In this document: positions 7,874 to 64,000 of the stretch, one piece after another
Layout: every line of letters starts with the position of its first letter
Position numbering within the stretch: position 1 is the first letter of the stretch
DNA from: Candidatus Tayloriibacteriota bacterium
GTDB taxonomy: Bacteria; Patescibacteriota; Minisyncoccia; Phycocordibacterales; PALSA-1337
Assembly: GCA_943350765.1 (NCBI GenBank)
Contig: CALRAJ010000003.1
Span: 65,456 to 129,455 of the forward strand
DNA length: 64,000 bases
Reading direction: 5' to 3'
The notes under the pieces: generated by a model
The model's input: only the letters and a program-made list of their open reading frames with translations
Database searches by the model: none
What the model was told of the DNA's origin: nothing
Position numbers and translations under genes: made by a program

Positions 7874-7984
7874 GCTCCATATAGCCACTTTCTAGGAACC
7901 ACTGATCCATTAGACGCGAGTGACCTTTTTTCAGGTTGCGTTAGGTATTTTGTGTCATATTGACCGATGTGCTATAGTTTATGT

Positions 7985-8740
7985 ATGTTAGAAAAATACC
8001 TTCAAGAAATAGGGCTTAATGAAAAAGAGGCGAGCGTGTACCTAGCCTTACTCCAATACGAAAATGCTTCAGCGATTGATATTTCTGAAAAAACTAAGAT
8101 CAACCGTTCGACCACATACACAGTTTTGGAATCACTGGCAAAAAAGGGTCTAGTAAGTGAGACGACCGTAGGTGTAAAAACTCGATATCACGCAGAATCA
8201 CCAGAGCGTTTGGAGTCTTTTGTTGAAAGACAAAAAGTTATTCTAGAGGAACACTCAAAGCGCTTAAAGGACATTATTCCACAGATCAAGAGTGTGCAGA
8301 GAGAGAGCGGAGAAAAACCGATCGTTCAGTATTATGATGGAAGGGAGGGTATTATTACCTCAGCAGAAAGACTCTATGAGAAAAATGATGAGGGCGGGGA
8401 AGTCTATTTGATGTACTCACGCGACCTGATTACAGATATTTTTTCAGAAACTGAAAATAAAAAATATAGAAAAATAAGACTTGATAAGGGTATTAAGTCC
8501 AAGGTTCTGTACACATACAAAACAGGTGAGCTAAAATCCGATGAAATGGGCGACAGAGTAAAGATTGATGGCGAAAAGTACCCAATAAAATGTGATATTG
8601 CAATATATAAGGATAGAGTACGAATAAACACTCTCACAAAATCTTTATCTAGCGTTTTTATTAAGAGTCAGGATTTGGCGGATACTCTGCGAAGCCTATT
8701 CGACCTAGCACATGATTATATAAAAAAAAGTCGGCCATAG
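7985..8740 (+). CDS. TrmB-family transcriptional regulator
   Basis: N-terminal wHTH LNEKEASVYLALLQYENASAIDISEKTKINRSTTYTVLESLAKKGLV. Start taken at MLEKY. Confidence 0.7.
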   Translation: MLEKYLQEIGLNEKEASVYLALLQYENASAIDISEKTKINRSTTYTVLESLAKKGLVSETTVGVKTRYHAESPERLESFVERQKVILEEHSKRLKDIIPQIKSVQRESGEKPIVQYYDGREGIITSAERLYEKNDEGGEVYLMYSRDLITDIFSETENKKYRKIRLDKGIKSKVLYTYKTGELKSDEMGDRVKIDGEKYPIKCDIAIYKDRVRINTLTKSLSSVFIKSQDLADTLRSLFDLAHDYIKKSRP

Positions 8741-10220
8741 TTACCTATGACCGACTCGCGTACTAGCTTTTAGTATAAATCTATTTCCGATGCCCTTTTC
8801 GTGCTAATCAGAATGATTTTACTAACCAATGAGGTGATTTTTCCCCTAATCAGACTTCACCATAGACTTTACCTTGCCTGCTGGGGTTTTCCCCTTAATC
8901 GGACTCGCCGCTGTGCTGCATAATAGGCCTTTTGGCTTGTTGTTTGTGGTGTGCCTGAGAGAACTCGACTGGAGTGGGCTTCCAATACCGTGTTCTAGTG
9001 CCAATGAGGTCCACTAGAACACGGTACTTTCTGCCTAGCTTAGTCGCTCATTGTGTCCTCCTTTGGCTACAGGTGGCTAGTATTGCCGGCGTCTCATGAC
9101 ACCACCACCCTACATCCAAAAGACAGTATATACTATCTGCGGTACATTTGTCAAGTATTACTAACATTTTTCATGACTAAGGCTATATTACTAGCCATAT
9201 TTTCATATAAATCAACGATTAATAGCCATTTTAAGTGTTTTTAATAAATGACAGAATTATTTTATTAAGAATTATAAAAATAATATGTCAAAGAAATACT
9301 AATAATGTTATATCTCAATAACACTTATATATGTATAAATAGCTTTAAATAAGGATATCATGGTATTTAAAAACGAGAAGTGTCAAAAAGGCTTGACAAA
9401 AATACTGTATCGTGTATACTCATGCACAGATTGATTTTTGATTGCGTTGGGTACTTCTTTGTGTTTCTTTAAAAAACTTCTCGGCCTCCCAGTAATACAG
9501 TGGGGTTTTAAAGAGAACATTTTTGAGAAGCACAAAGAAGTATCCAATTTTATACCAAAATGCACATCATGAGTGATGGCACAACCATGACCCACGCTGA
9601 GTGGCTCGCATGGTTGCGCGGGGAGTAGAAGTACTTCCTATGCTGCGATTGCAGAAATGTGATACGCGGGGTTTGGGTGTCTACCTGGCAAAATAAGGAC
9701 ACAGCAGATCAGAAACAATCAACGGAGAATTTTAAGATTCTCCACTTCATTGGGTTTACAACATTGTGTTGCAAATCCATAGAGTTTAGCTCTTTGAATA
9801 AAAACATTAGGTGTCTGCACTAAATTGTGTTTATGAGAAATGAGAAAGTATAAACATAGCTTAGTGCAGATACTTTGCATGTATCCGAGCACCAGTATCA
9901 CTGATGTGGTGATACGAAGGAAAGTAGGTATATCGTTTGTCGATCCAACAAACTCGCAGGGGGAAATCCTCGGAGTATTGATGGTTGATAAACGAGCCTG
10001 ACGGTACAGAGAACGGCTCTGATTACCGGACTTACTGAGCCCTAAACAGTTATTAGGCTGTTATGGGGGAGGGTAATAACTCCCGCTGACGAAAAGCTAT
10101 CGTCAGTACTTGGTGGATGAATGATCCCAGTGGATCGTTCGGAGGTTGTAGATAGGTCGCGACCTGTCTAGCCTCCACTGCATATAGTTTATTTCGATGC
10201 CCCCAGACACATGGTCTGGG

Positions 10221-10296
10221 TTCTGTCCGAGAGTATTTGCTCTCGCTGATGAGTCCGACCTATAGCGTAAAACGCTTGGCCATGAGGACGAAACAG
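10221..10296 (+). ncRNA. hammerhead ribozyme motif HHR1 (type-III-like topology)
   Basis: cuGUC | stem I cgagaguauuugcucucg | CUGAUGA | stem II gucc...ggac | GAAAC | ag. Predicted cleavage after C10227. Confidence 0.6.
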
Positions 10297-10621
10297 AATG
10301 TTCTTTAAAATAAGTACATCTACGCAAATAGTGTTTGAAATATCGATCACTGCTTGCGCAGATGTACATAGAAGACATCAAAGCGCCCACGGGCGACCGT
10401 GAGCACTTGATATTTGGAGCAAAATAAGGGCGTTGACCTTTATTTTGGAACCATGCAACTTCCGATTCATTTCGGAAGGCTTTTTTCAAGTTAAATCAGC
10501 TTCATTGCTGGATGTTGGATGATCACCGACAGGTAACCACTCGAATATTATTTGAGTGAACCACTTCTAGACTTCCTCCTTCGTAAATCCTGCCTAACTT
10601 CGGGTATAGGTTGAAGGGGGT

Positions 10622-10696
10622 TTCTGTCCACGAATATCATTCGTGCTGATGAGCTAGTCTAATACCGCATGGAGGTTGATGACAATAGCGAAACAG
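10622..10696 (+). ncRNA. hammerhead ribozyme motif HHR2
   Basis: cuGUC | stem I cacgaauaucauucgug | CUGAUGA | stem II cuag..uag with large loop | CGAAAC | ag. Cleavage after C10628. Confidence 0.5.
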
Positions 10697-10847
10697 AATG
10701 TTCTTTGAATAATTCGTCATAGCAGAAAGTGGCTCAAGTCTTGGGCTATTCTCCGCTATGACGAAACCTGTCGGTTACGTATAGCAAACGCACCCAAACC
10801 TTTTAAATAAGGGTTGTTTAGCGATAACGTTACCGCCTTGTAATATT

Positions 10848-11465
10848 ATGAATAACAATAAATTCAGCCTCGGTCGTAGTTCAGAAAATCTGGTGGTTCT
10901 CAAGAACGGTCAACCGTTCTTCACCAGTCCCATTGCAAACGCTTGCATGGGTTCCCTGGAAGTTGGACTTCAACTTCCTAATCTCCCTGTGACCAAGAAA
11001 GACGACAGCGTCTGCACTGGTTACATGGAGCCTTACTGGGGTAATGCCCATACCGAAATTCTCGTTGCTGGAGGGAGTTGCTGTGATGGTTACTTGATGG
11101 GCGTAAGTCCTGACGGTAAACTCACAAAAATTCTTGCCATCGACTTCAACATTCGATGCATCGCACCATTTATCTACACCATTCCTGCAAAGGAAGCTGG
11201 GAAAGATGAGCATGTGATGCTCGGGTTGTTGGTTTCGGGATCAGGCTGTTCGGGTTGCGGTGTCAGGTTTGTGGATTTCAATAGGCCAACACCTATTTCC
11301 ATGCCTGTCATTTCAACCGAGGAAGCGGCGAAGCGTTCCAACTTCTGGCTTAACGGCGGTGACCCATTCAGCGTTGCTGATATTTGGGACCGTTTGGCTA
11401 AACTCGGCATCACTGCTGACAAGGAGAGGACCGCAATGGCTTCAAAAGCCTTCGTCGCCTTCTAA
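10848..11465 (+). CDS. hypothetical protein (cassette ORF A)
   Basis: 205 aa, Cys/Gly-rich. No recognisable domain. Confidence 0.45.
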   Translation: MNNNKFSLGRSSENLVVLKNGQPFFTSPIANACMGSLEVGLQLPNLPVTKKDDSVCTGYMEPYWGNAHTEILVAGGSCCDGYLMGVSPDGKLTKILAIDFNIRCIAPFIYTIPAKEAGKDEHVMLGLLVSGSGCSGCGVRFVDFNRPTPISMPVISTEEAAKRSNFWLNGGDPFSVADIWDRLAKLGITADKERTAMASKAFVAF

Positions 11466-11556
11466 CGAACAGAGGGACTGCGGCATCGGCACGCGGGCTA
11501 TGCATACTAGCTGGCAACAGAATAGTATGAACCGGGATTAGTAATTTACTAATCAA

Positions 11557-11607
11557 TACTGTCCGAGAGTGCGTACTCTCGCTGAAGAGCTCAAAAGAGC
11601 GAAACAG
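11557..11607 (+). ncRNA. hammerhead ribozyme motif HHR3 (minimal)
   Basis: cuGUC | cgagagugcguacucucg | CUGAAGA | g cuc aaaa gag c | GAAAC | ag. Cleavage after C11563. Confidence 0.6.
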
Positions 11608-11924
11608 AATGTTCTTAAAACCAAAAATCTTTAACCTCCGCTTTATTTATTTTATTCCGAAATAGAATGCATAAAGCGGAGGTGTAAAGAACGCCACTCC
11701 GACTTCACCGAAGGGAAGGGCGGTGGTCGTAACCACTGTCAGCAACTAAACCGCACTCAAACATTGGCAGGTTGAAAACTGTCTTGGGTAATTCCAGATA
11801 ATGAGCAGTCATTATTATTTGAGAGGTGTAGTTGCAAGCTATAAATCATAAGCCAAGGGTGGCAAATTACCACCCTGTTGATTTATAGAAGGAGAATGCT
11901 CAGTAATTCAATACCCAGCCTTCT

Positions 11925-11982
11925 CCACTTTATTGAGTTCATAAAGAAATTTGTGGATTCATAGAGTTCTTTGAATTTTATG
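11925..11982 (+). promoter_or_regulatory. conserved leader hairpin motif, copy 1
   Basis: ctttattgagttcata...tgtggattcatagagttctttgaattttATG. Stem tgagttcata/tgtggattca holds only if GU wobbles are allowed. Homologous to 13051-13124 and 15818-15886. Confidence 0.5.
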
Positions 11983-12228
11983 TGGTATGACTGGGAATGG
12001 ATACAGTGGGCCAAGGAAGAGTGGTGGTATCTGGAAGTTAAACCTGAGAGTCCTCTCGGGAGGAAAATCAGATGGAAACTTCTGGTGAAAGCCGCTCTTG
12101 CTTATCTGCGTTCCGGAAAAGTCCAAGAAGAAAACTCAACCATCAGGGATGCCGTCAGGCTGGCACACGGGTGGGTGCAGAGTAATTTTCAGGGAATCGG
12201 AGTGTGGTTGGGCACTGGTCAACACTAA
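11980..12228 (+). CDS. hypothetical small Trp-rich protein (cassette ORF B)
   Basis: ATG at 11980 (MWYDWEW...), directly after the leader motif. Short, so low confidence. Confidence 0.3.
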   Translation: MWYDWEWIQWAKEEWWYLEVKPESPLGRKIRWKLLVKAALAYLRSGKVQEENSTIRDAVRLAHGWVQSNFQGIGVWLGTGQH

Positions 12229-12314
12229 CCATTTAAAACTGCCATATAAGTATGGCGGAGCACGGGTCACGGCTTGGCAACAGAATTGTGACAAATAAAT
12301 CTTGGTGTGCAGAA

Positions 12315-12397
12315 ACATGTGATGATACAGCATTATAAATGTATCCGTAATTCCTCGGTGAAGTTCCGAGGCGCCTGACGAGCGGAAATTGTTGGGG
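12315..12397 (+). repeat. composite intergenic repeat, blocks X plus Y, copy 1, continuous with HHR4
   Basis: acatgtgatgatacagcattataaatgtatccgtaat followed by hairpin ccucggugaaguuccgagg and cgccugacgagcggaaauuguugg. The same blocks recur at 16278-16384 and partly at 12854-12907. Confidence 0.55.
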
Positions 12398-12411
12398 ATC
12401 GCAAGATTCTC

Positions 12412-12466
12412 CTCTGTCTCGGAATGTGTTATTCCGACTGATGATGACTCAAAAGAGTCGAAACAG
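12412..12466 (+). ncRNA. hammerhead ribozyme motif HHR4 (minimal)
   Basis: cuGUC | ucggaauguguuauuccga | CUGAUGA | ug acuc aaaa gagu c | GAAAC | ag. Cleavage after C12418. Confidence 0.6.
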
Positions 12467-12538
12467 AGTGTTCTTTAAAATATATTTCATAGCACAGTCT
12501 CATTAAAGGGTCGATTTTCGATTTGATGGGAGTGTGCT

Positions 12539-12769
12539 ATGAAATATAAAACAAATTGGAAGCCGATTGTAGGAAGTCTCGATGAGTTACCTGTGCTAAG
12601 GAGCGCAACAACCCTAAGTGGGGTTGTTGAGTCAGCTTCTCGGACAGGGTCACTCGTTGTCCTTCTCGACGATGGAAGCAAGGTTGGAGTTTCAGGTGGA
12701 AAATATGCCCAAAAAGGACAAAGGGTCATACTCACTGATGGGGCTGATGGAGGTTATGTTGTGGCCTAA
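12539..12769 (+). CDS. hypothetical small protein (cassette ORF C)
   Basis: 76 aa, Gly/Val-rich. Confidence 0.35.
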   Translation: MKYKTNWKPIVGSLDELPVLRSATTLSGVVESASRTGSLVVLLDDGSKVGVSGGKYAQKGQRVILTDGADGGYVVA

Positions 12770-12853
12770 AAATCCAAGGTAATCCTAGCGGAGGCTAGTA
12801 CAACACTCACCACTCCCGCACATTCTCGGTGGGACAAAAAGTGGTCAAATCAT

Positions 12854-12907
12854 GGGACGTAATTCTTCGGGGAAGCTCCGAAGCGCCTAGCGAGCGGAAA
12901 TTGTTGG
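12854..12907 (+). repeat. partial X'-Y repeat without hammerhead
   Basis: gacgtaattcttcggggaagctccgaagcgcctagcgagcggaaattgttgg, homologous to 12340-12397. Confidence 0.5.
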
Positions 12908-13050
12908 TTTGGTAGTTGCTCCACAGCATACTTTATGGCACTTGCGTGTTAACTACTCAAGTGCAAAGGATCTACTCGTAGGCTTGATGGGTGAACCCGT
13001 CGGCATAAGAAAGAGTTGGCAAAAGATCCTGCTTGAGAACCACCTATTCT

Positions 13051-13124
13051 CGAGCACTTTATTGAGTCCATACAGTGAAATATTCTTATGGACTCATTGA
13101 GTGATTGTTTTTTGTGAATAAAAT
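13051..13124 (+). promoter_or_regulatory. conserved leader hairpin motif, copy 2
   Basis: gagcactttattgagtccata cagtgaaatattct tatggactcaa, a perfect 11-bp stem. The ATG of ORF D lies 27 nt downstream. Track ORF 12909-13100 overlaps it and is probably non-coding. Confidence 0.55.
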
Positions 13125-13574
13125 ATGAAAAAAAGAGGCGACACGGTTAGGTTCAACGACGTACACTTCGTTGTGTATCAGATTGTCAGGCCGATAGCCA
13201 TTGAGGGGGTCTTTGTGCTTCCTCTGGTGTTTGCTACGATGCCACTCACAACATCTGAACTTTTGGTAACCACCCCGAGAGGTCAGATGATAGCTCAGTG
13301 TTGGAATATGCGGAATGTCTCTGAAAAAGCTTTTGGACGGCTTGGAGATTCTGAGATAGGCATACTTTCCTTGGGGGAGATGGATCGCGTCCGGTTCGTT
13401 GTAAGGAATTTTTGGTCTGGATCCGATATTCCTCCTCATGTCGCGGAGTACTACGGGATTCATCCGATTGGCGATGACCACCCCGATCTTGAGCAGTACC
13501 TCAGAAGCTGGACTCGGAAAGTTGATCCGATTCAGGTGGATATCCGTGCCGAACTTTTTGGAAGGGGCATGTGA
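13125..13574 (+). CDS. hypothetical protein (cassette ORF D)
   Basis: 149 aa; GC noticeably higher than the flanking housekeeping genes. Confidence 0.4.
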   Translation: MKKRGDTVRFNDVHFVVYQIVRPIAIEGVFVLPLVFATMPLTTSELLVTTPRGQMIAQCWNMRNVSEKAFGRLGDSEIGILSLGEMDRVRFVVRNFWSGSDIPPHVAEYYGIHPIGDDHPDLEQYLRSWTRKVDPIQVDIRAELFGRGM

Positions 13575-13592
13575 GTTTTTCGGAATCAATAA

Positions 13593-14021
13593 GTGGACGA
13601 TGTAACGTTCACTTTCTTATCAAGTCCATCAACGATGGTGGGCTTGTTGGAAAAACGACAGAATTTCGAATTATCTATGAGCACAAATTTTCAGTCGGCA
13701 ATGGTCGAATGGGTTCTGACGGGAAACAATACGGAGGAAGACCCTTTTGAGTTTGAGTTCCATGCGATAACCAGCGATGAGGAGAGTAAGTTTCTTAGGC
13801 CGTTTGTCGTCGCTACAGTGTGGGTGGCCGGTGACGATTATGGTTTAATCGGGCCGTGCCTAGATAGATTGTTTGAAGAGAGTCGGTTTGCAGGCATGGC
13901 CCGTTACGGAAATGTTCGGCTGTCAACCATCGGTCTCGTTGTTTTTGATGGTATTGGAAAACTAACCTTCGCTTTGACTGATGAAGGTCAGTATGTGTGT
14001 TGTTTCGATAGTTTCACTTGA
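13593..14021 (+). CDS. hypothetical protein (cassette ORF E)
   Basis: 142 aa. Its first 25 codons are duplicated at 15250-15318. Confidence 0.4.
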   Translation: MDDVTFTFLSSPSTMVGLLEKRQNFELSMSTNFQSAMVEWVLTGNNTEEDPFEFEFHAITSDEESKFLRPFVVATVWVAGDDYGLIGPCLDRLFEESRFAGMARYGNVRLSTIGLVVFDGIGKLTFALTDEGQYVCCFDSFT

Positions 14022-14281
14022 TGGACCGCCGATCTCCATGGTACATGATCGGCAATTTATCAAGCTCGGCATTTTCCACACTGTAAAGTTGGAAAAATGA
14101 TGAGCTTGTAGATTTGATTTCAGTTCTTTGAAATCTCGTAACACATTTCATGTTCGACAGGTGAATGGGGACAGTCTAGACCCCCGTTCACTTGTTGAAA
14201 AATCCAAATAGGCATATCTGGAAGTTGCAAAAAAGCGACAGGATATGAGGGGTAGAGATTGCATCAATATTTCTATTTTTT

Positions 14282-15187
14282 GTGATGAGTGAACTTGTTA
14301 TGAAAATCACAATCTTGGTGAAGTGTGTCCAACTCGACCCCCGCCCTCAAGGCGCGGGAGGCAACGAGGAGTTTTTCCGCGGTAACCGCGTTCTCGGCAT
14401 CGAAGTCACGATTCCGAGCCTTGCGGCCCGCTGTATCGCTAACCTCGACCACCATGGCGAACATGACACAGCGGAAACGCCAAGTGCCTGTGAGCAAGCT
14501 CTCACCAAGAGCCTCGGCAATACTGGCGTAATCATGGCGACGGTTCGGCCTGATGCTGACTCGGTGACCGCCATGGCGGTTTTGGCACGGCAGCTCGAAG
14601 GCCTGTCAGTGGATGAAGACCTCATCCGCGCGGTCGGAGCCTTCGACCGGCTGGGGCCAGCTGCCGGGCGTCCGGAAGATCGCGTCATTGCGATCGCTCG
14701 GAAGGCGATGGACTTCAAGATCCTCCTGTGTGATCGGGTGATCTGGGTGGCTGACCTTATCGGGGGTGAGGACAAGTCGGCCGAGGTCGCGACTTTGGTG
14801 GCGTCTCACGATGCCGACATCGCCGCGGCTCGGCAGGCATCGCAAATCAGCACCCGCTCTTCCAAAGGGGTGATGATCGCATCGGTCACCTCTACTCACC
14901 GCAACGCCACCCTGCTCGGCTACGAGGCTGGACAGGTGGTGGTGGCGTTTAACCCCACCATGGCGGTGGACCCGAAGTCGCCCTCTGCCGGTACCTACGA
15001 GAAGTTCACGGTCTGCAGGTACGACTCCCATGTCAGGTGCGATTTGCCCTCAGCTCTCAAAGAACTTCAAGCTCTCGAAGTTGGGTGGGGTGGTCGCGGC
15101 GACATCTTCGGGTCCCCTCAGGGTGTCAGTTCGACCTTAGTGACGGCACAGGTGTTGGAAGTGGTTGCTCGCCACTGCTACGAATAA
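14282..15187 (+). CDS. hypothetical protein, markedly GC-rich (cassette ORF F)
   Basis: 301 aa, Ala/Arg/Gly-rich. Several antisense ORFs overlap it, as expected for high GC. Composition differs from the host genes. Confidence 0.4.
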   Translation: MMSELVMKITILVKCVQLDPRPQGAGGNEEFFRGNRVLGIEVTIPSLAARCIANLDHHGEHDTAETPSACEQALTKSLGNTGVIMATVRPDADSVTAMAVLARQLEGLSVDEDLIRAVGAFDRLGPAAGRPEDRVIAIARKAMDFKILLCDRVIWVADLIGGEDKSAEVATLVASHDADIAAARQASQISTRSSKGVMIASVTSTHRNATLLGYEAGQVVVAFNPTMAVDPKSPSAGTYEKFTVCRYDSHVRCDLPSALKELQALEVGWGGRGDIFGSPQGVSSTLVTAQVLEVVARHCYE

Positions 15188-15249
15188 GTTTTGACGGCGT
15201 TTGAGCAACGCCATCACATACCGCAATATGTGATTTCGAATCAACATGT

Positions 15250-15318
15250 AAATCAACAAGTGGACGATGCGGCGTTCACTTTCTTATCAAGTCCATCAAC
15301 GATGGTGGGCTTGTTGGA
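15250..15318 (+). repeat. direct repeat of the 5' end of ORF E
   Basis: caacaagtggacgatgcggcgttcactttcttatcaagtccatcaacgatggtgggcttgttggaaag is near-identical to 13585-13655. It encodes MDDAAFTFLSSPSTMVGLLERRGYQ and then a stop. Confidence 0.6.
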
Positions 15319-15406
15319 AAGAAGGGGATATCAATGATCCCGAAGTGGTTATTGAGAGGGCTAGACGGCAGATGGCCGAGAATTATGAAGGATTAGATTG
15401 AAAATT

Positions 15407-15570
15407 ATGGGAAAAGGTACGAAGTCCTTCAAGGTGTCAGGCGGTTCGGGAGGAAAGCGTGGTCACTCTAACATGTGCCATTGGACAGTTACTGCTGAAA
15501 TCAAGGCAGTTTCCAAGAGGGCGCGTCGTCTGGAAACCAAGCGTCTCATCGCTACTGAACGCCAAGACTA
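15407..15570 (+). CDS. possible small basic protein (54 aa)
   Basis: MGKGTKSFKVSGGSGGKRGHSNMCHWTVTAEIKAVSKRARRLETKRLIATERQD. Below the ORF-track size cutoff and speculative. Confidence 0.2.
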
Positions 15571-15817
15571 GAAGGCAATAACACCTTGCAAAAGGTTGCC
15601 ACAAAATCCGGTGGTGTAAATCAAGGTAAACAGTTTTGTCCCCGTTTTTTCTGAAAAAAATGGATGAGCCTAGAGGAAGCAGAGCCTCAAATGTTTTGTT
15701 CTTAAGGGGATCAATTTTTGCTAGCAAGAATTGATAAAGGATCTATCCCATAGCGTGATGAGAAATCATCGGCGTAAGGGGTGGCACAGATCCATGCTCA
15801 AAGAAAGGACCTAATCT

Positions 15818-15886
15818 TGAGCACTTTATTGAGTCCGTGCAGTGAAATACATTCGCGGATTCATAGAGTTCTTTACAAATTATGTT
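15818..15886 (+). promoter_or_regulatory. conserved leader hairpin motif, copy 3
   Basis: cttgagcactttattgagtccgtg cagtgaaatacatt cgcggattca tagagttctttacaaattatg. The stem is kept by compensatory and wobble changes relative to copies 1 and 2. Confidence 0.55.
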
Positions 15887-16219
15887 ATGAGTATGAAAAC
15901 CAACTCAGTTATCGGGGCTGTCATTTTGGTAGTCGTAATCTTCCTAACCACTGGTTGTGAGGAGGCTGACAAGAGTCAGTTCAACCTCACATCGTTTCCG
16001 ACTAACCACTGGAAAGTGGTCGGTCAGGGAACGAATGGGCAAGTCGTCGTCGAGACGACATCCACTAACCTGTTGCAGTACTTTCGGGTACACCTAGCGA
16101 CAGCTGTGGTTCCCTTGACTAACGGGCAATCGGCCCGACTCGAGGTAACCACAAGGTGGAATCCCAGGAAAGGGGTGCGGGAGATTATCTCCTCCATGGC
16201 TTATCCAGCGATGGAGTGA
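15887..16219 (+). CDS. hypothetical lipoprotein (cassette ORF G)
   Basis: MSMKTNSVIGAVILVVVIFLTTGCEE is a signal peptide plus lipobox Cys. First in-frame ATG after the leader motif. Confidence 0.4.
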   Translation: MSMKTNSVIGAVILVVVIFLTTGCEEADKSQFNLTSFPTNHWKVVGQGTNGQVVVETTSTNLLQYFRVHLATAVVPLTNGQSARLEVTTRWNPRKGVREIISSMAYPAME

Positions 16220-16277
16220 TGAAGTAAGGTTGAAATTGAACCTCTAAAATTCTCCTCTCCTGCAGAGTGCGCAGGGA

Positions 16278-16384
16278 ACATGTGATGGTACAGCATTATA
16301 AATGTATCCGTAATGTGATTTGGCTAATACCAAATCCGACTCTGGGGAAGCTCCGGGGCGCTTGACGAGCGGAAACTGTTGGGG
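16278..16384 (+). repeat. composite intergenic repeat, blocks X plus Y, copy 2, continuous with HHR5
   Basis: acatgtgatggtacagcattataaatgtatccgtaat, then a 30-nt insert, then ctctggggaagctccggggcgcttgacgagcggaaactgttgggg. Confidence 0.55.
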
Positions 16385-16398
16385 ATCATAAGATCCTC

Positions 16399-16453
16399 CC
16401 CTGTCTCGGAATGTGTTATTCCGACTGATGATGGCTCAAAAGAGCCGAAACAG
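16399..16453 (+). ncRNA. hammerhead ribozyme motif HHR5 (minimal)
   Basis: cuGUC | ucggaauguguuauuccga | CUGAUGA | ug gcuc aaaa gagc c | GAAAC | ag. Cleavage after C16405. The stem II changes a-u to g-c relative to HHR4 and so are compensatory. Confidence 0.6.
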
Positions 16454-16499
16454 AATGCTGGTGTGCTTGTTGGAAAAATTACGGTATTCGTATTTCCCT

Positions 16500-16835
16500 A
16501 TGAAGACATTTCAAGACGAAGTCTGTGGCGATCTGGTGGCCTCGGTGATATCTGGCTACACATCCCTGAATCATTCGGATGTTAAGGCGTGGATTATGAA
16601 GTGGGGGTTGATGCCCGTTGAATTCCCTCAAGACCTCTGTCTTTCGTTGATTGAGATAGACGAGGATCATGAGACTGATGGCGGCTTGGTTATAAACCTC
16701 GGAAAGATTGATGGTACCAGGAAATGGTATGCAAACAAACCCAAAGATGTCATCGAAAAAGTTCGACGGGATATTGCCGACGCACTACGGGATCTAGGAG
16801 CTGTTACCAAAGAATCTTCTCGGGCGACGGACTGA
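16500..16835 (+). CDS. hypothetical protein (cassette ORF H)
   Basis: Track ORF 16413 overlaps HHR5, so start is moved to ATG 16500 (MKTFQDE...). Confidence 0.35.
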   Translation: MKTFQDEVCGDLVASVISGYTSLNHSDVKAWIMKWGLMPVEFPQDLCLSLIEIDEDHETDGGLVINLGKIDGTRKWYANKPKDVIEKVRRDIADALRDLGAVTKESSRATD

Positions 16836-16938
16836 TCCATGCGATAGGCGGTCATAAAAGTTTTCAAAGTGCCTGACCAGCACTTTTTTATTTTGTAATA
16901 CATCTCTTAAAATGCTAGTATGAGGGCTATATAATAAT

Positions 16939-59610: not shown

Positions 59611-59740
59611 AAAATTTCCTGGTGTCGTGTAGCAACTAGTCCTAAAAAGGGGGTTCGGAGGCTGACGAGCCGAGACTTCAGGTCTTGGCGAGCCAGCCAA
59701 AGGCCGTACCCTTTTTAGGACTAGTTGCGAAACCGTTGAC
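59611..59740 (+). repeat. repeat family F2 copy 2 (upstream of the 23S rRNA gene)
   Basis: gtgtagcaactagtcctaaaaaggg...ccctttttaggactagttgcgaaaccgttgac forms a long hairpin. Homologous to 53863-53968. Confidence 0.5.
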
Positions 59741-60836
59741 AATAAAAACGCCCTAGTATATACTATCCGTTACCTGAATATGTTGAAGAATCACTTTAAA
59801 AAGCGCTAAAGATAACGGATATTTTTCTGTTGTTTTTAGAACCGCTTAAAAAAGCGGATTTTTGTTTCCAAAAAGGAAACACCCAACCGAATGGTGCGAG
59901 GTTTAGGGCTAAATCATTCACGAAGGCGAATGATCGCCCGACTCCACGAAATGGAGTTTAGGGTCCAGAAACGACCGTCACTTTGAAAAATAAATCCTAT
60001 CGTCGTATCAACTTGCGGTGTACTCTTTTGGGTATACGCGTGGGTCTTTTCGGTACGATAGATAGCTGTACTGCGGAAACGCAGTACAAAACCTTTATCA
60101 GGTTTTCAATCAGGATCTGGTAAAGCGAATTGGTAAGTCTGTGGGGAGAAATCTTCACAGACAATTGTAAGTAAATAATTGTGGTTTTTAAATTTCCTAA
60201 TAGGAAATTAAGAGCATATGGTGGATGCCTTGACTTGAAGAGGCGATGAAGGACGCGGTCTGGCTGCGATAAGCTTCGGGGAGGTGCCTAGCAACCTTTG
60301 ATCCGAAGATTTCCGAATGGGGAAACCCCTCGTGCTTGACACGAGACTCTGTAGCAATACAGAGAGCATACCCAGGGAAGTAAAACATTTCATTACCTGG
60401 TGGAAAAGAAAACAATGTCCGCAAGGACAATATTTCCTAAGTAGCGGCGAGCGAAAAGGAAAGAGCCCAAACCGAAGCATCACGGTGAGTGTGATAGATG
60501 AGGCGAAAGTCGAAAGTACGAAGTCTAAGGTCGATTCAAAATGCAAACACTATGCATTTGAGTTCACTTTTGACTTTTAGGCTTAGGACTTTCGACTTGT
60601 GCATCGTACCCAGCGTGATGCTTCGGGGTTGTAAGGTGAGAGCGTTCTATTTATAGAAGTAGAGTTAAAAAATAGTGTATTAGCTTAAATATCTGAAAAG
60701 ATATACCCTAGAAGGTTATAGTCCCGTAAGCGAAAATATACTATCTCTATTGTTCTCATTCTTGAGTACCTCGAGACACGAATGGCTCGGGGGAATCTGC
60801 CGGAACTAACCGGTAAGGCTAAATACTCTTCAAGAT

Positions 60837-60875
<39 letters not shown>

Positions 60876-61630
60876 GCCCGTCAAGGGCGGTGAAATAGAC
60901 CTGAAACCATATGCTTACAAGGAGTAGAAGCGGTGTCTCGCTTGTGCGAGGAAAAATAAAGAATGTATGTATTGAATTATTCTCCCTTTTTTAAAGGGAG
61001 CAGGCTCCATGCCGAGGGATTTAAATTTCAAATCCCTCCGCGCCAGAGTACTGTCGGTGCTCCCTTTAAAAAAGGGAGAATTTAATACAACAGCTTTTGA
61101 TTTTTATTCGTAAAAGTGAGACACCGTGACTGCGTGCCTATTGAAGAATGAGCCAACGAGTTAATGTATGCTGCAAGCTAAGTCCTTTACCGGATGGAGC
61201 TTCAGGGAAACCGAGTGTTAATAGCGCGTCTGTAGTATACATTAGACCCGAAGCCAGGTGAGCTTGTCATGCGCAGGGTGAACTCTCGAGAAATCGAGAG
61301 GGAGGCCCGAACCGGTGAGCCGTTCAATACTCTCGGATGACGTGTGATAAGGAGTGATAAGCTAATCGAACCTGGTAATAGCTGGTTCTCTCCGAAATAG
61401 CTTTTGGGCTAGCGTCGGAATTACCTTTGAGGGGTAGAGCACTGGAAGGTCTTGACAGGTCGAAAGATCCCGAGACCTATCAAACTCCGAATACTCAGAG
61501 TAAATTTTCCGGCAGTTAGACTGTGGGGGCTAAGCTCCATTGGTCAAAAGGGAAACAGCCCGGATCTCCATTTAAGGTCCCTAAATCTATGTTAAGTACG
61601 CTTAAGGTGGTAAGTTTTCTCAAACAATGA

Positions 61631-61662
<32 letters not shown>

Positions 61663-62610
61663 GAAAGCGTAACAGCTCACTCATCGAGAGAATTTGCGCC
61701 GCAGATAATCGGGGTTAAACATAGTACCGAAACTGAGGATTGCATATGTCTTCGGACGTATGCACTGGTAGGAGAGTATTCGCAACTGCACTGAAGGTAA
61801 AGGGGTGACCCATACTGGAGCGTTGCGAAGTAAGAATGTTGGCACAAGTAACCACAATGCAGGTGAGATACCTGCACGCCGAAAGACCAAGGATTCCTTG
61901 GCTATGTAAATCAGCCAAGGGTTAGTCGGGCCTAAGGGAATGGCGAAAGCCGTACTCGATGGACACATGGTTAATATTCCATGACGTATTTTGTGTGCGA
62001 CGGGATGACGAAGAGTAGTATGTATAGCGCATTATTGGATTTGCGTTTGTGTCGTCAGGGTGATTTCCAGGAAAATCCGGAAGTCTGTGTTTAATCACGC
62101 TCCAAGCGATATGAAGATGCTCGGGTTCGCTCGGGTAAATTGTACAAAGCACACTTTCAAGAAAAATCTCTAAGCATAACGCAAAGTACACCGTACCGCA
62201 AACCGACACAGGTGGTCAGCTCGAGTAGAGTAAGGCGAACGAGTGATTTTTCTCCAAGGAACTCGGCAAAAAAGCAGCCGTAACTTCGGAATATGGCTTG
62301 CCCGAGCATCACATGGGGTGTGATGCAGGCAAAAGTCGAAAGGTCGTAAGTCTGAAAGTCGGGATCCCGACTTTATGGACTCTATACTTTTAACTTTTGA
62401 CTCGTGCATCGCGCTTCGCGCGATGCTCGGGCCGCAGCGAAAGTATCCCTGGCAACTGTTTATCAAAAACACAGCTCCCTGCGAACTCGTAAGAGGATGT
62501 ATAGGGGGTGACACTTGACCAATGCCAGAAGGTCAAACGACGGCGGTGCTATGGTCGCAAGATTGTAGTGCTGGATGTTGTAAGCCCTGGTGAATGTCGG
62601 CCGTAACTAT

Positions 62611-63438
62611 AGACATGACCGTTGTAGTTACGCAAATAAATCTTGCCATATGCTGGAAACTCTGGCTTCACCTTCAATTTGGAGATGAAGAAAAAAGTGT
62701 TTATTACTACTCGCTTTGTCGAAAAGCAGTGACAATGTAATAACGCAGACAATCAGCAGGAAAGACTTCTTCTGTAATCAAAAATAAAATGGATTGGCTA
62801 CGCCAAATCAAACCGGATATGGGAAACTATATCGCAGGGTTCACGGATGGTGAAGGAAGTTTCAACATTTCAGTGAAAAAGAGAATTGATTACAAAGATC
62901 ATTGGAAGTTGACAGCCTCATTTAATATCTCTCAAAAAGACCGTGTTATCCTTGCTCTCATAAAAAAGGAGCTTGGGTGCGGGACTCTGCGAGAGAGAAA
63001 AGACGGAGTTGTTTACTACGAAGTGACTAACATCACTTCATTGAAAGAAAGAATTATTCCGTTTTTTAAACGGTTTGGTTTTCTTTCAGCACGGAAAAAA
63101 ACAAATTTCTCCATCTTTTCGACAATTGTCGAAAAGATGGAGAAAGGAGAACATCTGACAGATGAAGGTTTTCTGAAAATTCTAGAATTGAGAGAAACTC
63201 TCAATGAAGGAAGGGGAAGAAAACGTAAGTATAATTTATCAGATTGTATATCAAAAGAAGAATCCTCAGAGACTATACGCAAGACGGTTTCAAATCAATT
63301 GGAAGTCGACGATTTGAGAACGATGATATAGTCCGACCTTTGTGGCGACACAAAGATTAACAAAAAAGCAGAATCTTTGATAAACAGAGACTAGTTAAAT
63401 AAGTCGAAATAGTATGAGTGCATTGCTACTACATTATG
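62611..63438 (+). mobile_element. group I intron in 23S rRNA (domain IV, near E. coli positions 1915-1917)
   Basis: Exon junction ccgtaactat|...|aacggtcctaaggtagcgaaattcc reconstitutes the conserved AACUAUAACGGUCC. The exon ends in U, the intron ends in G, and the intron carries a LAGLIDADG ORF. Confidence 0.75.
62789..63331 (+). CDS. LAGLIDADG homing endonuclease (single-motif type)
   Basis: IAGFTDGEGSFNISV motif; 180 aa; sits inside the intron. Confidence 0.8.
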   Translation: MDWLRQIKPDMGNYIAGFTDGEGSFNISVKKRIDYKDHWKLTASFNISQKDRVILALIKKELGCGTLRERKDGVVYYEVTNITSLKERIIPFFKRFGFLSARKKTNFSIFSTIVEKMEKGEHLTDEGFLKILELRETLNEGRGRKRKYNLSDCISKEESSETIRKTVSNQLEVDDLRTMI

Positions 63439-64000
63439 AACGGTCCTAAGGTAGCGAAATTCCTTGTCAGGTAAGTTCTGACGTGCACGAATAGTGTAAT
63501 GACTGGGGAACTGTCTCGGAGAATAGCTCGGTGAAAATACAGTACCGGTGAAGATGCCGGTTACCTGCAGTTAGACGAAAAGACCCTAGAAGCTTTACTG
63601 CAGCTTGATATTGAGCATATGTTTTTGATGCGTAGCGTAGATGGGAGGATTTGAAGTGTATCTCTCGGGGTGCATGGATCCGCAAGTGAAATACCATTCT
63701 TTAAAAATATATGTTCTAACCTGTACGGCAAAAACGCACAGGGACATTATCTGGTGGGCAGTTTTAGTGGGGCGCTATCCTCCTAAAGAGTAACGGAGGA
63801 GTTTATTAAGGTCAGCTAGGCGCGAATGGAAACCGTGCCGATAGTGTAATGGCATAAGCTGGCTTAACTGTGAGGCGTACTTGCCAAGCAGATGCGAAAG
63901 CAGAACATAGTGAACCGACCATTCGCATTAGACGCGGTGGAAGATTATCGGATAAAAGCTACTCTAGGGATAACAGGCTGGTTGTGCCTAAGAGTTCATA

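Follow-up and report, generated by a model that had tools for sequence, protein, structure and literature searches.

In this study, we analysed 64,000 nucleotides of DNA (the window) from a Candidatus Tayloriibacteriota bacterium (GenBank assembly GCA_943350765.1, contig CALRAJ010000003.1, positions 65,456 to 129,455 of the forward strand), in which an array of small genes punctuated by hammerhead ribozyme motifs extends from position 7967 to position 16895. A sequence-only reading, made without database searches, had described most of this region as an accessory island of cassette-like open reading frames (ORFs) lying between a TrmB-like regulator gene and ileS. On the comparative evidence given below, the locus is a conserved, TrmB-headed locus type that recurs across Patescibacteria with variable cargo, and not a sporadic accessory island. 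All coordinates refer to the window, and features are on the + strand unless stated otherwise.

Organization of the locus

The locus opens with a gene for a TrmB-family helix-turn-helix (HTH) regulator (7967..8740; Pfam PF01978, 66.5 bits against a cutoff of 25.6, E = 2e-18). A 2.1-kb stretch without a called gene follows, as the sequence-only reading had described it, and then come nine small ORFs, designated A to I, between a leader and a terminator. A public gene caller recognised eight of the nine. None of these eight matched a Pfam, PHROGs or PADLOC family, in agreement with the earlier description of eight small ORFs without recognisable function. The region has the outward signs of an operon, in that one promoter scoring 11/12 and one terminal intrinsic terminator (16866..16895) bracket the array, while all of the ribozymes stand on the coding strand.

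A chimeric assembly was considered as the source of this arrangement and rejected. Identical junctions occur in at least four independently assembled samples, which excludes it, and ORF F, the most conspicuously GC-rich gene of the array, is GC-rich in every host.

Five hammerhead motifs and their family

We scanned for type III hammerheads with a descriptor in which stems I and II had to be closed and stem III open, around a UH cleavage triplet, CUGANGA and GAAA. In the 64-kb window it matched five sites and no more, each on the + strand within the island, and it gave no match in five shuffles of about 380 kb. The same five sites were recovered by a covariance model of the family, R1, built from 120 relatives with HH3 as the sole training member from the window; scores ranged from 46 to 75 bits (E = 1e-17 to 8e-10), and the next match had an E value of 2. 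Every site carries the conserved hammerhead core, namely CUGA(U/A)GA, GAAA and a GUC triplet, and the five are packed into 6.2 kb on the coding strand. Judged by these models, the five sites are genuine type III hammerhead motifs, for which self-cleavage is predicted. The five cores and their strand had been recognised by the sequence-only reading, whose cleavage positions (10227, 10628, 11563, 12418 and 16405) coincide with those predicted here.

HH1 (10220-10299, or to 10310 with its tail GUUCUUUAAAA) is predicted to cleave after 10227 and scored 60.2 bits with R1 (E = 1e-13) and 41 bits with the Rfam Hammerhead_3 model (E = 2.4e-6). HH2 (10622-10698, to 10710 with the tail GUUCUUUGAAU) would cleave after 10628 and reached 47.7 bits with R1 (E = 3e-10). 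The core of HH3 (11559-11607, to 11621 with the tail GUUCUUAAAAC) reads CUGAAGA, and its predicted cut follows 11563; its 75 bits with R1 are those of a training member, and Rfam gave 29 bits (E = 7.5e-4) for 11559-11607. HH4 (12412-12468, with the tail GUUCUUUAAAA to 12480) and HH5 (16401-16453) share an extra U after A9 and are predicted to cleave after 12418 and 16405, respectively. HH4 scored 55.5 bits with R1 (E = 2e-12) and 35 bits with Rfam (12411-12469), the Rfam matches of HH3 and HH4 both coming from the scan of a shorter stretch, and HH5 scored 46.1 bits with R1 (E = 8e-10) and 30.2 bits with Rfam (16398-16456). HH5 has no BoxA-like tail, and its stem III directly abuts the AUG of ORF I. 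Minimum-energy folding produced the canonical three-way junction in HH1, HH2 and HH4.

Relatives of these motifs were collected by scanning public metagenome contigs for the pattern CTGATGAG...CGAAACAG-N1-5-GTTCTTT, which matched at least 120 stretches; related loci are referred to by L numbers. In the pattern-selected loci, among the matches listed, the scanner found 197 hammerheads in 116 loci, with up to six per related locus, and the hammerheads of one locus share their strand with a single exception. A same-strand ORF of at least 45 aa begins within 400 nt downstream of 183 of 207 related hammerheads, at a median distance of 57 nt. One hundred and twenty non-identical members have identical geometry, align without gaps and keep the catalytic nucleotides invariant. 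Double changes were found in 12 of the 14 base pairs (490 cells in total), a level that none of 500 shuffles equalled; as the scanner demanded pairing, the value of 99.9% paired arises by construction, whereas the diversity of pair types does not. In the common form, stem I has 6 bp and is capped by a UGUGUA-type loop, while stem II has 4 bp and an AAAA or GAAA loop. Most members are without an appended domain. Variation consists of long stem II insertions, as in HH1 and HH2, and of the extra U after A9 seen in HH4 and HH5. From the pattern of substitutions, the hammerhead family is real and evolving, and it is a distinct and very uniform subfamily.

Some variant hammerheads have CCGAUGAG in place of CUGAUGAG, with a C at the usually invariant U4 (L008 16477-16525 (-), L030 1340, L102 2233 and L107 4727). 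All of them have an altered 3' strand of stem III, GAAACGG or GAAAUGG, and they may be inactive copies or a tolerated variant.

Hammerheads that come in pairs could also release small RNAs that circularise and behave as mobile or satellite-like (retrozyme-like) units. The 400-nt interval between HH1 and HH2 is devoid of ORFs, as are intervals in L118, the 5'-OH and 2',3'-cyclic phosphate ends left by cleavage are ligatable, and circular products were raised as a possibility by Perreault et al. (PMC3088659). However, the same authors detected no circular or spliced products (PMC3088659), neither a reverse transcriptase nor target-site duplications accompany the array, most intervals carry ORFs, and all five copies in the 64 kb are confined to one array. 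We consider this explanation very improbable, and the mobile or satellite-like ribozyme units that the sequence-only reading had offered as its second possibility received no direct support.

A TrmB-headed locus type

Homologs of the TrmB-family protein are frequent in Patescibacteria (more than 627, with 60-80% identity). When the ORFs of the pattern-selected loci were clustered, a TrmB-like protein proved to be the most widespread protein family (48 loci), and a homolog stands upstream of the first hammerhead, from a few hundred to a few thousand nucleotides away, in 42 of 47 pattern-selected loci. In these 42 cases the gene is co-directional with the hammerheads 23 times and divergent 19 times. 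Because all of these loci had been selected by an RNA motif, a reverse test was carried out with six long contigs chosen solely by a TrmB homolog of 64-74% identity. Five of the six carry two to four hammerheads downstream, on one strand, and all six have a CTTGACAAAA...TATACT promoter 650-1500 nt past the TrmB stop codon, together with other modules of the system. Both results indicate that TrmB is the head of the system and not a flank. The TrmB gene, by its recurrent position, belongs to the system and is the conserved head of the locus type, whereas the sequence-only reading had treated it as a boundary of the island.

The architecture common to these loci consists of the TrmB gene, a divergent non-coding RNA (ncRNA) of about 400 nt, a strong promoter and a structured leader, followed by repeated units. 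Each unit begins with a ribozyme or, in its place, a conserved hairpin and continues with the tail G(U/C)UCUUURAAA, a structured 5' untranslated region (5'UTR) and a small ORF. Contigs that carry homologs of ORF F present the same picture, with ORF F amid small unannotated ORFs beside a TrmB-family gene at differing chromosomal places and with hammerheads of the same kind. L148-L150 are syntenic and have RNase Y, ClpP, HU and RsmE neighbours in common. The comparison with related genomes that the sequence-only reading had proposed thus gave a recurrent design of TrmB and hammerheads with differing cargo.

The conserved tail

The hammerheads of the family are followed by a tail with the consensus G(U/C)UCUUURAAA. 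This, and not the ACAGAAUGYU that the sequence-only reading had placed after all five sites, is the conserved element, and HH5 is without it. Among 77 hammerheads of the same loci that lie outside the search pattern, GTTCTT occurs within 16 nt in 27% and a one-off variant in 52%, against a background of 0.8% in random 16-mers. The four positions that follow GUUCUUU lay beyond the search pattern, and they are biased as well (R 86%, A 75%, A 74% and A 69% at positions 8-11). These frequencies in unselected hammerheads, together with the RAAA positions, argue that the tail is no artefact of the search pattern. As the same tail also follows the CAUAGAG modules described below, it shows where a unit begins irrespective of the element in front.

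The tail resembles BoxA, for which the consensus for NusB/NusE loading is GYTCTTTAANA (Baniulyte et al. 2017, PMC5725501). The tails of HH1 and HH4 match this consensus perfectly, and those of HH2 and of the copies at 9789, 11966, 14123 and 15868 do so with one mismatch, although the consensus derives from gamma-proteobacteria, a phylum other than that of the host. The copy at 14123..14133 (GUUCUUUGAAA) is an orphan tail whose 5' neighbour resembles the 3' half of a decayed hammerhead (AUGAUGAG...GAUUUCAG); judged by eye, this neighbour looks like a decayed ribozyme.

The leader of the 23S rRNA gene of the window (59736-59985) contains a strong promoter of the TTGACA..TATACT type and two CACUUU(A/G)AAAA elements, which resemble BoxA and the 5' half of the CAUAGAG module.

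Other structured RNA modules

Recurring intergenic modules had been noted by the sequence-only reading, and they were recovered here as repeat families, among them D1, D2, D3, D6, D9 and D10. Within one array, module identity is 80-97% (D1, D3 and D10). Three motifs stand out beside the hammerheads, namely the GGCAACAGAA pseudoknot, the CAUAGAG module and D2, for which Rfam searches of 1.1 kb at E values up to 10 and with lax filters returned only hairpin-like microRNA noise.

The GGCAACAGAA motif comprises a hairpin closed by CUG...CGG, the dinucleotide RG and a second hairpin; the loop of the latter pairs with the nucleotides directly 3' of an invariant YUGGCAACAGAA. About 27 instances were collected, some 24 of them beyond the window in loci L008-L135. 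At fixed columns the loop-downstream pairing reaches 63%, compared with 36.5% in shuffles (0 of 500 equal), and in a free register the mean longest helix is 5.3 as against 4.2 +/- 0.2 for swapped partners; a GGUGGAGAAAACCAUC subclass is without this pairing. The motif is placed after stop codons, often directly 5' of a hammerhead, and in that position it would form the 3' end of the upstream cleavage product. In the window it occurs in the 3'UTR of ORF A, immediately 5' of HH3 (11473..11534), in the 3'UTR of ORF B (12236..12297) and, as a variant copy with the loop CUGGCAAAAUAA, in the leader (9647..9708).

The CAUAGAG module is built from a variable hairpin, ACUUUAUUGAGUY, a variable covarying hairpin and GGAUUCAUAGAG, and it has the potential to pair ACUUUA with UAGAGU and UGAGUYC with GGAUUCA. 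Such modules occur in L008, L014, L106, L129, L131 and L145-L150, where they stand in the places that hammerheads take elsewhere, and looser variants (GGUCCACAGAG, GAUCCAUAGAG) are common among the TrmB-selected loci. The module could be an RNase site, a nut-like element or a candidate ribozyme. The leader copy (9738..9799, repeat D9) ends in the BoxA-like GCUCUUUGAAU (9789-9799), and L145, L146 and L147 contain conserved, repeated versions of this block. A second copy, ACUUUAUUGAGUU-hairpin-GGAUUCAUAGAG followed by the BoxA-like GUUCUUUGAAU, occupies a hammerhead position at 11921..11976. A degenerate copy lies 5' of ORF D (13042..13102, repeat D6), and another, with the BoxA-like GUUCUUUACAA, lies 5' of ORF H (15809..15878).

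D2 is composed of a covarying hairpin whose loop reads GGAAGCU, a helix of 3 bp in which CGC/GCG changes to GGC/GCC, and GAAAYUGUUGG; further copies were found at L008 7413, L106 1423, L129 4759 and L146 12113 and in L131. It contains CUGACGA...GAAA and was therefore considered as a hammerhead core, an idea that was rejected because the heptamer lies in a hairpin loop and varies (CUAGCGA, UUGACGA, CUGACAA). One D2 copy in the window stands without a hammerhead (12858..12907). The other two are part of composite modules, the first consisting of D10, D2 (12346-12395), a small hairpin, HH4 and its tail (12314..12480; repeats D1, D2 and D10) and the second of D10, D2 (16333-16382), a hairpin and HH5 (16277..16453; D1 89% identical to 12357-12470). 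The composite of D2 and hammerhead, about 135 nt long, is 79-82% identical to L146 12078-12216.

The recurrence of this composite with an extra-U hammerhead, twice in the window and again in L146, and the covariation of the D2 stems could be taken to mean that the hammerheads act as switches or destabilisers of each gene, with D2 on HH4 and HH5 as a sensor. A BoxA near a ribosome-binding site can also have a negative effect, as at suhB, where translation is repressed and termination by Rho is favoured (PMC5725501, PMC12360218). Against such a role, an appended domain is absent from most hammerheads of the family, and neither a ligand nor a link to gene function emerged for the array. To our knowledge, natural allosteric hammerheads are not an established class, and we give the switch explanation hardly any credence.

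Promoters, leader and divergent RNA

The two best sigma-70-like promoters of the region lie back to back at 9154-9125 (-) and 9393-9420 (+), each scoring 11/12. The latter, the array promoter, has the form TTGACA-16-TATACT, and CTTGACAAAA...TATACT equivalents are present in L008 and L145-L150, at distances of 650-1500 nt from TrmB. Tandem TGACAAAAA-like boxes (window 9330-9400; L008 6730-6770) extend from just upstream of the -35 element of this promoter into that element (GTGTCAAAAAGGCTTGACAAAAATA), and they are candidate operators for the TrmB-like protein.

The minus-strand promoter would drive the divergent ncRNA of about 400 nt (8722..9154, -), which ends at a 13-bp terminator, the best in the region (8757-8728, -). 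In an alignment of seven loci its first 190 nt or so are conserved. They contain an invariant AGGAGG and an AUG-NGC-GAC-UAA mini-frame (AGGAGG-N6-AUG AGC GAC UAA in the window), as well as a long hairpin in which changes on one side are compensated on the other. Pairing is possible between GCGACU and AGUCGU and also between GGAGG and CCUCC, and in view of the latter pairing the apparent Shine-Dalgarno sequence may be structural. Neither strand of the ncRNA gave an Rfam match.

Just past the predicted start of transcription lies a long hairpin of 115 nt (9440..9554), which has a structural equivalent in L008 and was scored by Rfam only as a generic hairpin (mir-1 model). It is followed by a 22-aa micro-ORF, MHIMSDGTTMTHAEWLAWLRGE (9560..9628); L008 encodes MIHIMPDGTTMTHKEWLAYIQGK with synonymous changes, and L150 has 82% nucleotide identity. 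A terminator-like hairpin with a U-run lies further downstream (10459..10485), within the non-coding HH1-HH2 segment.

Cargo genes and their origin

The modules that precede the ORFs are a hammerhead for ORFs A, C and I, with HH3 ahead of the region of ORF B, the CAUAGAG module for ORFs B and H, a degenerate CAUAGAG module for ORF D and the orphan tail for ORF F. ORF A (10848..11465, 205 aa) is Cys-rich and belongs to no family. ORF B (11981..12228, about 82 aa) is Trp-rich, was left uncalled by the public caller and has its start codon directly after the module. ORF C (12539..12769, 76 aa), ORF D (13125-13574, 149 aa) and ORF E (13593-14021, 142 aa) follow. Downstream of ORF F come ORF G (15407..15571), which encodes a basic protein of 54 aa that is 65% identical to a small ORF product of the L149 array; ORF H (15887..16219), a probable lipoprotein with the signal ...FLTTGC, its lipobox being read from the sequence, and 44% identity to an ORF of the L150 array; and ORF I (16455..16835, 126 aa), which begins with MLVCLLEK, a sequence similar to MVGLLEK at an internal start of ORF E (repeat D8).

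ORF E and ORF I (16454-16508) have a common N-terminal M(V/L)(G/V)(L/C)LLEK, and a 70-nt pseudo-cassette start (15251..15320) is a 94% copy of the ORF E start at 13584-13653 (repeat D3), with a truncated frame. The duplicate start and the related N-termini look like traces of cassette duplication or recombination.

ORF F (14300..15187) has a GC content of 0.60 and about 180 homologs (181), which are 42-66% identical among the 120 listed; the named sources are Patescibacteria, namely Paceibacteria, Uhrbacteria, Falkowbacteria and Saccharibacteria. Its AlphaFold2 model has a predicted local distance difference test (pLDDT) value of 96, and Foldseek matched it with a probability of about 1 to the PAP phosphatase 8a8k, NrnA 4ls9 and RecJ2 7ykv, with template-modelling (TM) scores of 0.3-0.4 owing to domain orientation. 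The residues D50-H51-H52, D85 and D87 are invariant, and the Pfam DHH model scored 16.6 bits, under its cutoff of 28.1. According to the structural model, ORF F is a DHH/DHHA1-fold phosphoesterase. Across loci L005-L021 its GC content is 47-64%, compared with 32-58% for the hosts; it lies 3-25 points above the host in all full-length loci, and 10 or more in most, which suggests frequent transfer or selection at the nucleotide level. The sequence-only reading had singled out both ORF F and ORF D as GC-rich; this was right for ORF F, whereas the GC content of ORF D (0.49) does not exceed that of the adjoining ORFs.

The window and the islands with ORF F homologs have only ORF F and TrmB in common. 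Elsewhere the recurrent cargo includes a 95-aa Cys-rich, Zn-ribbon-like protein (10 loci), a receiver-like protein of 230 aa (9 loci) and a 77-aa membrane protein (6 loci), and a CYTH protein and a glycosyltransferase-like protein were found in other arrays. In L148 the first large gene after a hammerhead of the TrmB-headed array (11975-13819) encodes a Ro60/TROVE protein. Ro60/TROVE is an RNA-quality-control factor that binds Y RNAs. A defence system was also considered and rejected, as PADLOC gave no match for the island ORFs and the matches of TrmB to CARF/Csa3 models reflect a shared HTH only.

In 18 of 20 loci the array has a higher GC content than its flanks, and in 25 of 26 a higher one than its own TrmB gene; such GC-rich arrays behind a host-like TrmB fit horizontally exchanged cargo under a resident platform. 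Foreign composition would also be expected if the island were a decayed prophage or another integrated mobile element, in which case its hammerheads would be left over from the processing of phage transcripts; prophages are also the setting from which the first bacterial hammerheads were described. Clusters of hammerheads in bacteria typically have integrases and prophages nearby (PMC3088659), the G+C content at third codon positions (GC3) is 0.35-0.69 in the island, with eight of nine ORFs at or above 0.47, compared with 0.35-0.37 in TrmB and ileS, and the arrays exceed their surroundings in GC as just described. Apart from ORF F, the cargo differs wholly between genomes, an rve transposase lies beside ORF F in L006, and L005 has a DUF87/TraG-like ATPase. 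On the other hand, no integrase, terminase, capsid, tail or reverse transcriptase gene occurs in the window within 10 kb on either side, which agrees with the sequence-only reading, and PHROGs searches with the nine island ORFs yielded only weak, non-significant matches (best E = 0.0035). XerC/D-type genes are present in seven loci, but they are kilobases distant, on either side and inconsistently placed. The pattern of hammerhead and tail was found 0 times in 2.9 million IMG/VR contigs as against at least 120 times in metagenomes, and the array has its anchor in a TrmB gene that is conserved and host-like, with synteny in relatives (L148-L150). A prophage origin is in our judgement improbable. 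Two IMG/VR matches to GGATTCATAGAGTTCTTT were set aside, since the rest of the module is missing and they look like chance coding matches.

The same composition could reflect an integron-like capture platform in which the RNA modules serve as recombination points and cleavage is secondary, an explanation that is compatible with the operon proposed below. A host-like TrmB (GC 0.38) with GC-rich cargo is in keeping with it, and so are the ORF F, Zn-ribbon-like, receiver-like and 77-aa families, which recur in differing arrays and orders, each behind a module. The high identity of modules within an array and the truncated cassette start at 15251-15320 point the same way, and the GC offset of ORF F from every host is that expected of an often-moving gene. 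However, no dedicated recombinase is associated with the arrays, no attC-like site was identified, though no search with an attC model was made, and homologous recombination through the modules would be a matter of conjecture. We regard capture as the leading function of the modules as unlikely, if somewhat less so than a prophage origin.

The 23S rRNA gene of the window

At the far end of the window, the 23S rRNA gene (60345-64000) contains several large insertions that the bacterial model lacks, one of them about 180 nt long (60937-61116). It also encloses an ORF of 180 aa (62789-63331), and no 16S gene adjoins. In view of the insertions and the internal ORF, introns or a homing-endonuclease gene may be present, of which there are reports from Patescibacteria.

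Discussion

What has been observed directly is the presence of the motifs, the way in which they are conserved and covary, the order and strand in which they stand and their link to TrmB. These observations lead us to propose that positions 7967-16895 are probably a single TrmB-headed, ribozyme-punctuated operon whose cuts would separate the mRNAs of its cargo. Under this proposal, two divergent strong promoters beside the TrmB gene would give rise, on the minus strand, to the ncRNA of about 400 nt and, from 9393-9420, to a transcript of about 7.5 kb. The long transcript would comprise a structured leader of about 800 nt, with the long hairpin and the 22-aa micro-ORF, the nine small genes and the terminator at 16866-16895. 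The five hammerheads would fold and cut themselves co-transcriptionally after 10227, 10628, 11563, 12418 and 16405. With the cleavage site at the 5' edge of the ribozyme, each downstream RNA would open with a 5'-OH and a compactly folded ribozyme, to be followed by the G(U/C)UCUUURAAA tail, the structured 5'UTR and the ORF, while the upstream RNA would end in a 2',3'-cyclic phosphate, often just past a pseudoknot or D2. The likely outcome would be that unrelated and horizontally exchanged genes, although transcribed together, are expressed independently of one another from separate mRNAs whose ends are defined and protected.

The tail may find its place in the same process. It matches the BoxA consensus and occurs once per unit, for which reason we propose a BoxA for every unit. 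A ribozyme cut would sever the nascent RNA that tethers an upstream BoxA-Nus complex and would leave untranslated RNA open to Rho. A tail acting as BoxA could reload NusB/NusE-type antitermination factors after each cut, so that RNA polymerase would continue through the untranslated, structured RNA. Cleavage in vivo, control by TrmB, insulation of the units and the BoxA function are what we infer from the arrangement of these elements. It is in line with the proposal that the 5'UTRs after ribozymes are more structured than control 5'UTRs (z -2.7 versus -1.0, p = 7e-4). Sequestration of the start codon by the hairpins after the tail, which had seemed to be indicated by eye (UCAUAGC...GCUAUGA), was rejected, because in 126 array 5'UTRs and 150 control genes the AUG is paired in 55% and 54%, respectively (p = 0.77).

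Several observations weigh against the proposal. The Rfam Hammerhead_3 model, one of those that the sequence-only reading had named as a check on the five sites, recognised them in part. At the curated thresholds no ribozyme was reported in the window; with sub-threshold reporting four of the five sites were scored, all below the gathering score of 48.5 bits, and HH2 had no match even then. In HH3 and HH5 stems I and II fold, but the 4-bp stem III is missing from the minimum-energy fold. The counts from metagenomes are biased, since the loci were picked by a pattern that holds both the hammerhead and GTTCTTT; the reverse test is small (n = 6); and the association of TrmB with the arrays is positional only. 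Four of the nine cistrons have no preceding hammerhead, so that ribozyme processing cannot be the whole story, and a simple model leaves unexplained why the HH1-HH2 interval of about 400 nt is non-coding and why it contains a terminator-like hairpin. As to the tail, its identity as BoxA leans on an 11-nt resemblance, and the 23S leader of the window itself carries GUCACUUUGAAAAA and AUCACUUUAAAAA, which are similar but not identical to the tail. A tblastn search of 1.1 Mb of fragments with an approximate E. coli NusB query gave no match and is uninformative. These fragments also contain no 16S start whose leader could be compared with the tail.

A wider proposal may be put forward more tentatively, as one that we hold to be considerably less likely than not. 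It states that the locus type is a Patescibacteria-wide platform, in which TrmB and the ncRNA would control a transcript of interchangeable units, each consisting of a ribozyme or another structured RNA with a Nus-reloading BoxA. If true, this would provide the first mechanistic rationale for bacterial ribozyme clusters, with cleavage and Nus reloading as a paired module, and at least one of the CAUAGAG module, the GGCAACAGAA pseudoknot and D2 would be a new class of self-cleaving or ribozyme-assisting RNA. Three ribozyme classes were discovered by inspecting the neighbours of bacterial hammerheads (PMC6765202), and the present locus holds, in a neighbourhood of that type, three conserved structured RNAs and an ncRNA of about 400 nt that are outside Rfam. 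The regularity of the locus, in which regulator, promoter, leader and tail are fixed while the modules alternate, makes the idea of polycistron processing concretely testable. For the biology of the candidate phyla radiation (CPR), a hypervariable and compositionally foreign set of genes under one conserved regulator is a plausible site of host interaction or of accessory functions.

Comparison with known systems

Perreault et al. (2011, PMC3088659) described clusters of hammerheads in prophages, where they often lie on both sides of one gene or of a short run of genes; three such arrays cleaved in vitro, and the authors proposed the processing of long transcripts. Since that proposal exists, the hammerhead-processed cassette array suggested by the sequence-only reading is a published hypothesis restated for a new case; it is strengthened here by comparative data, namely the 183 of 207 hammerheads followed by an ORF, the common strand, the promoter and the terminator, but it is not a new idea. 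Hundreds of bacterial hammerhead, twister, pistol and hatchet ribozymes have been found to cluster together or near certain genes for a reason that is unresolved (PMC6765202). The 2011 clusters and the present array have in common that several co-oriented hammerheads flank individual genes or small groups of genes, the identity of which varies. The former stand in a prophage or integrase context, whereas the latter lies in chromosomal Patescibacteria DNA without such genes within 10 kb and is headed by a conserved TrmB gene, promoter, leader and divergent ncRNA. It also differs in the BoxA-like tails on its ribozymes, apart from HH5, and in the non-ribozyme modules that take equivalent positions. 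In the searchable literature, to which the gene-association supplements of Roth 2014 and Weinberg 2015 do not belong, no link of hammerheads to TrmB or Patescibacteria was found, nor any description of a BoxA-like tail. Gene-flanking clusters have thus been known since 2011, and the features that appear to be new are the TrmB head and the BoxA-like tail.

The hammerheads themselves share the catalytic core, the three-helix topology (stems I and II closed, stem III open) and the GUC/GUU triplet with Rfam RF00008, but their scores lie under its gathering threshold. The tail is like the BoxA/nut elements of rRNA operons and lambdoid phages in its 11-nt match and in lying in untranslated RNA within about 50 nt of a start codon, and the hairpin beside the array tail recalls boxB in nut sites. 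Here, in contrast, the element is repeated once per cassette in one operon, directly 3' of a predicted self-cleaving ribozyme.

As in an integron, a resident platform with one promoter serves a variable string of small, promoterless genes, often without assigned function, with structured repeats between them. Integrons rely on IntI and on attI/attC sites, whereas the window locus has no recombinase and its repeats are coding-strand RNA modules 5' of the ORFs. Retrozymes and viroid-like elements are dispersed, non-coding hammerhead units, while the present hammerheads form one array in which only the HH1-HH2 interval is non-coding.

The synthetic insulator RiboJ is an engineered hammerhead and hairpin placed before a ribosome-binding site, and it provides a context-independent 5'UTR. 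The order of elements is the same in the array, with a hammerhead cut at the 5' edge, then a hairpin and then the ribosome-binding site; compared with RiboJ, the arrangement described here is natural, occurs in multiple copies and has an additional conserved tail.

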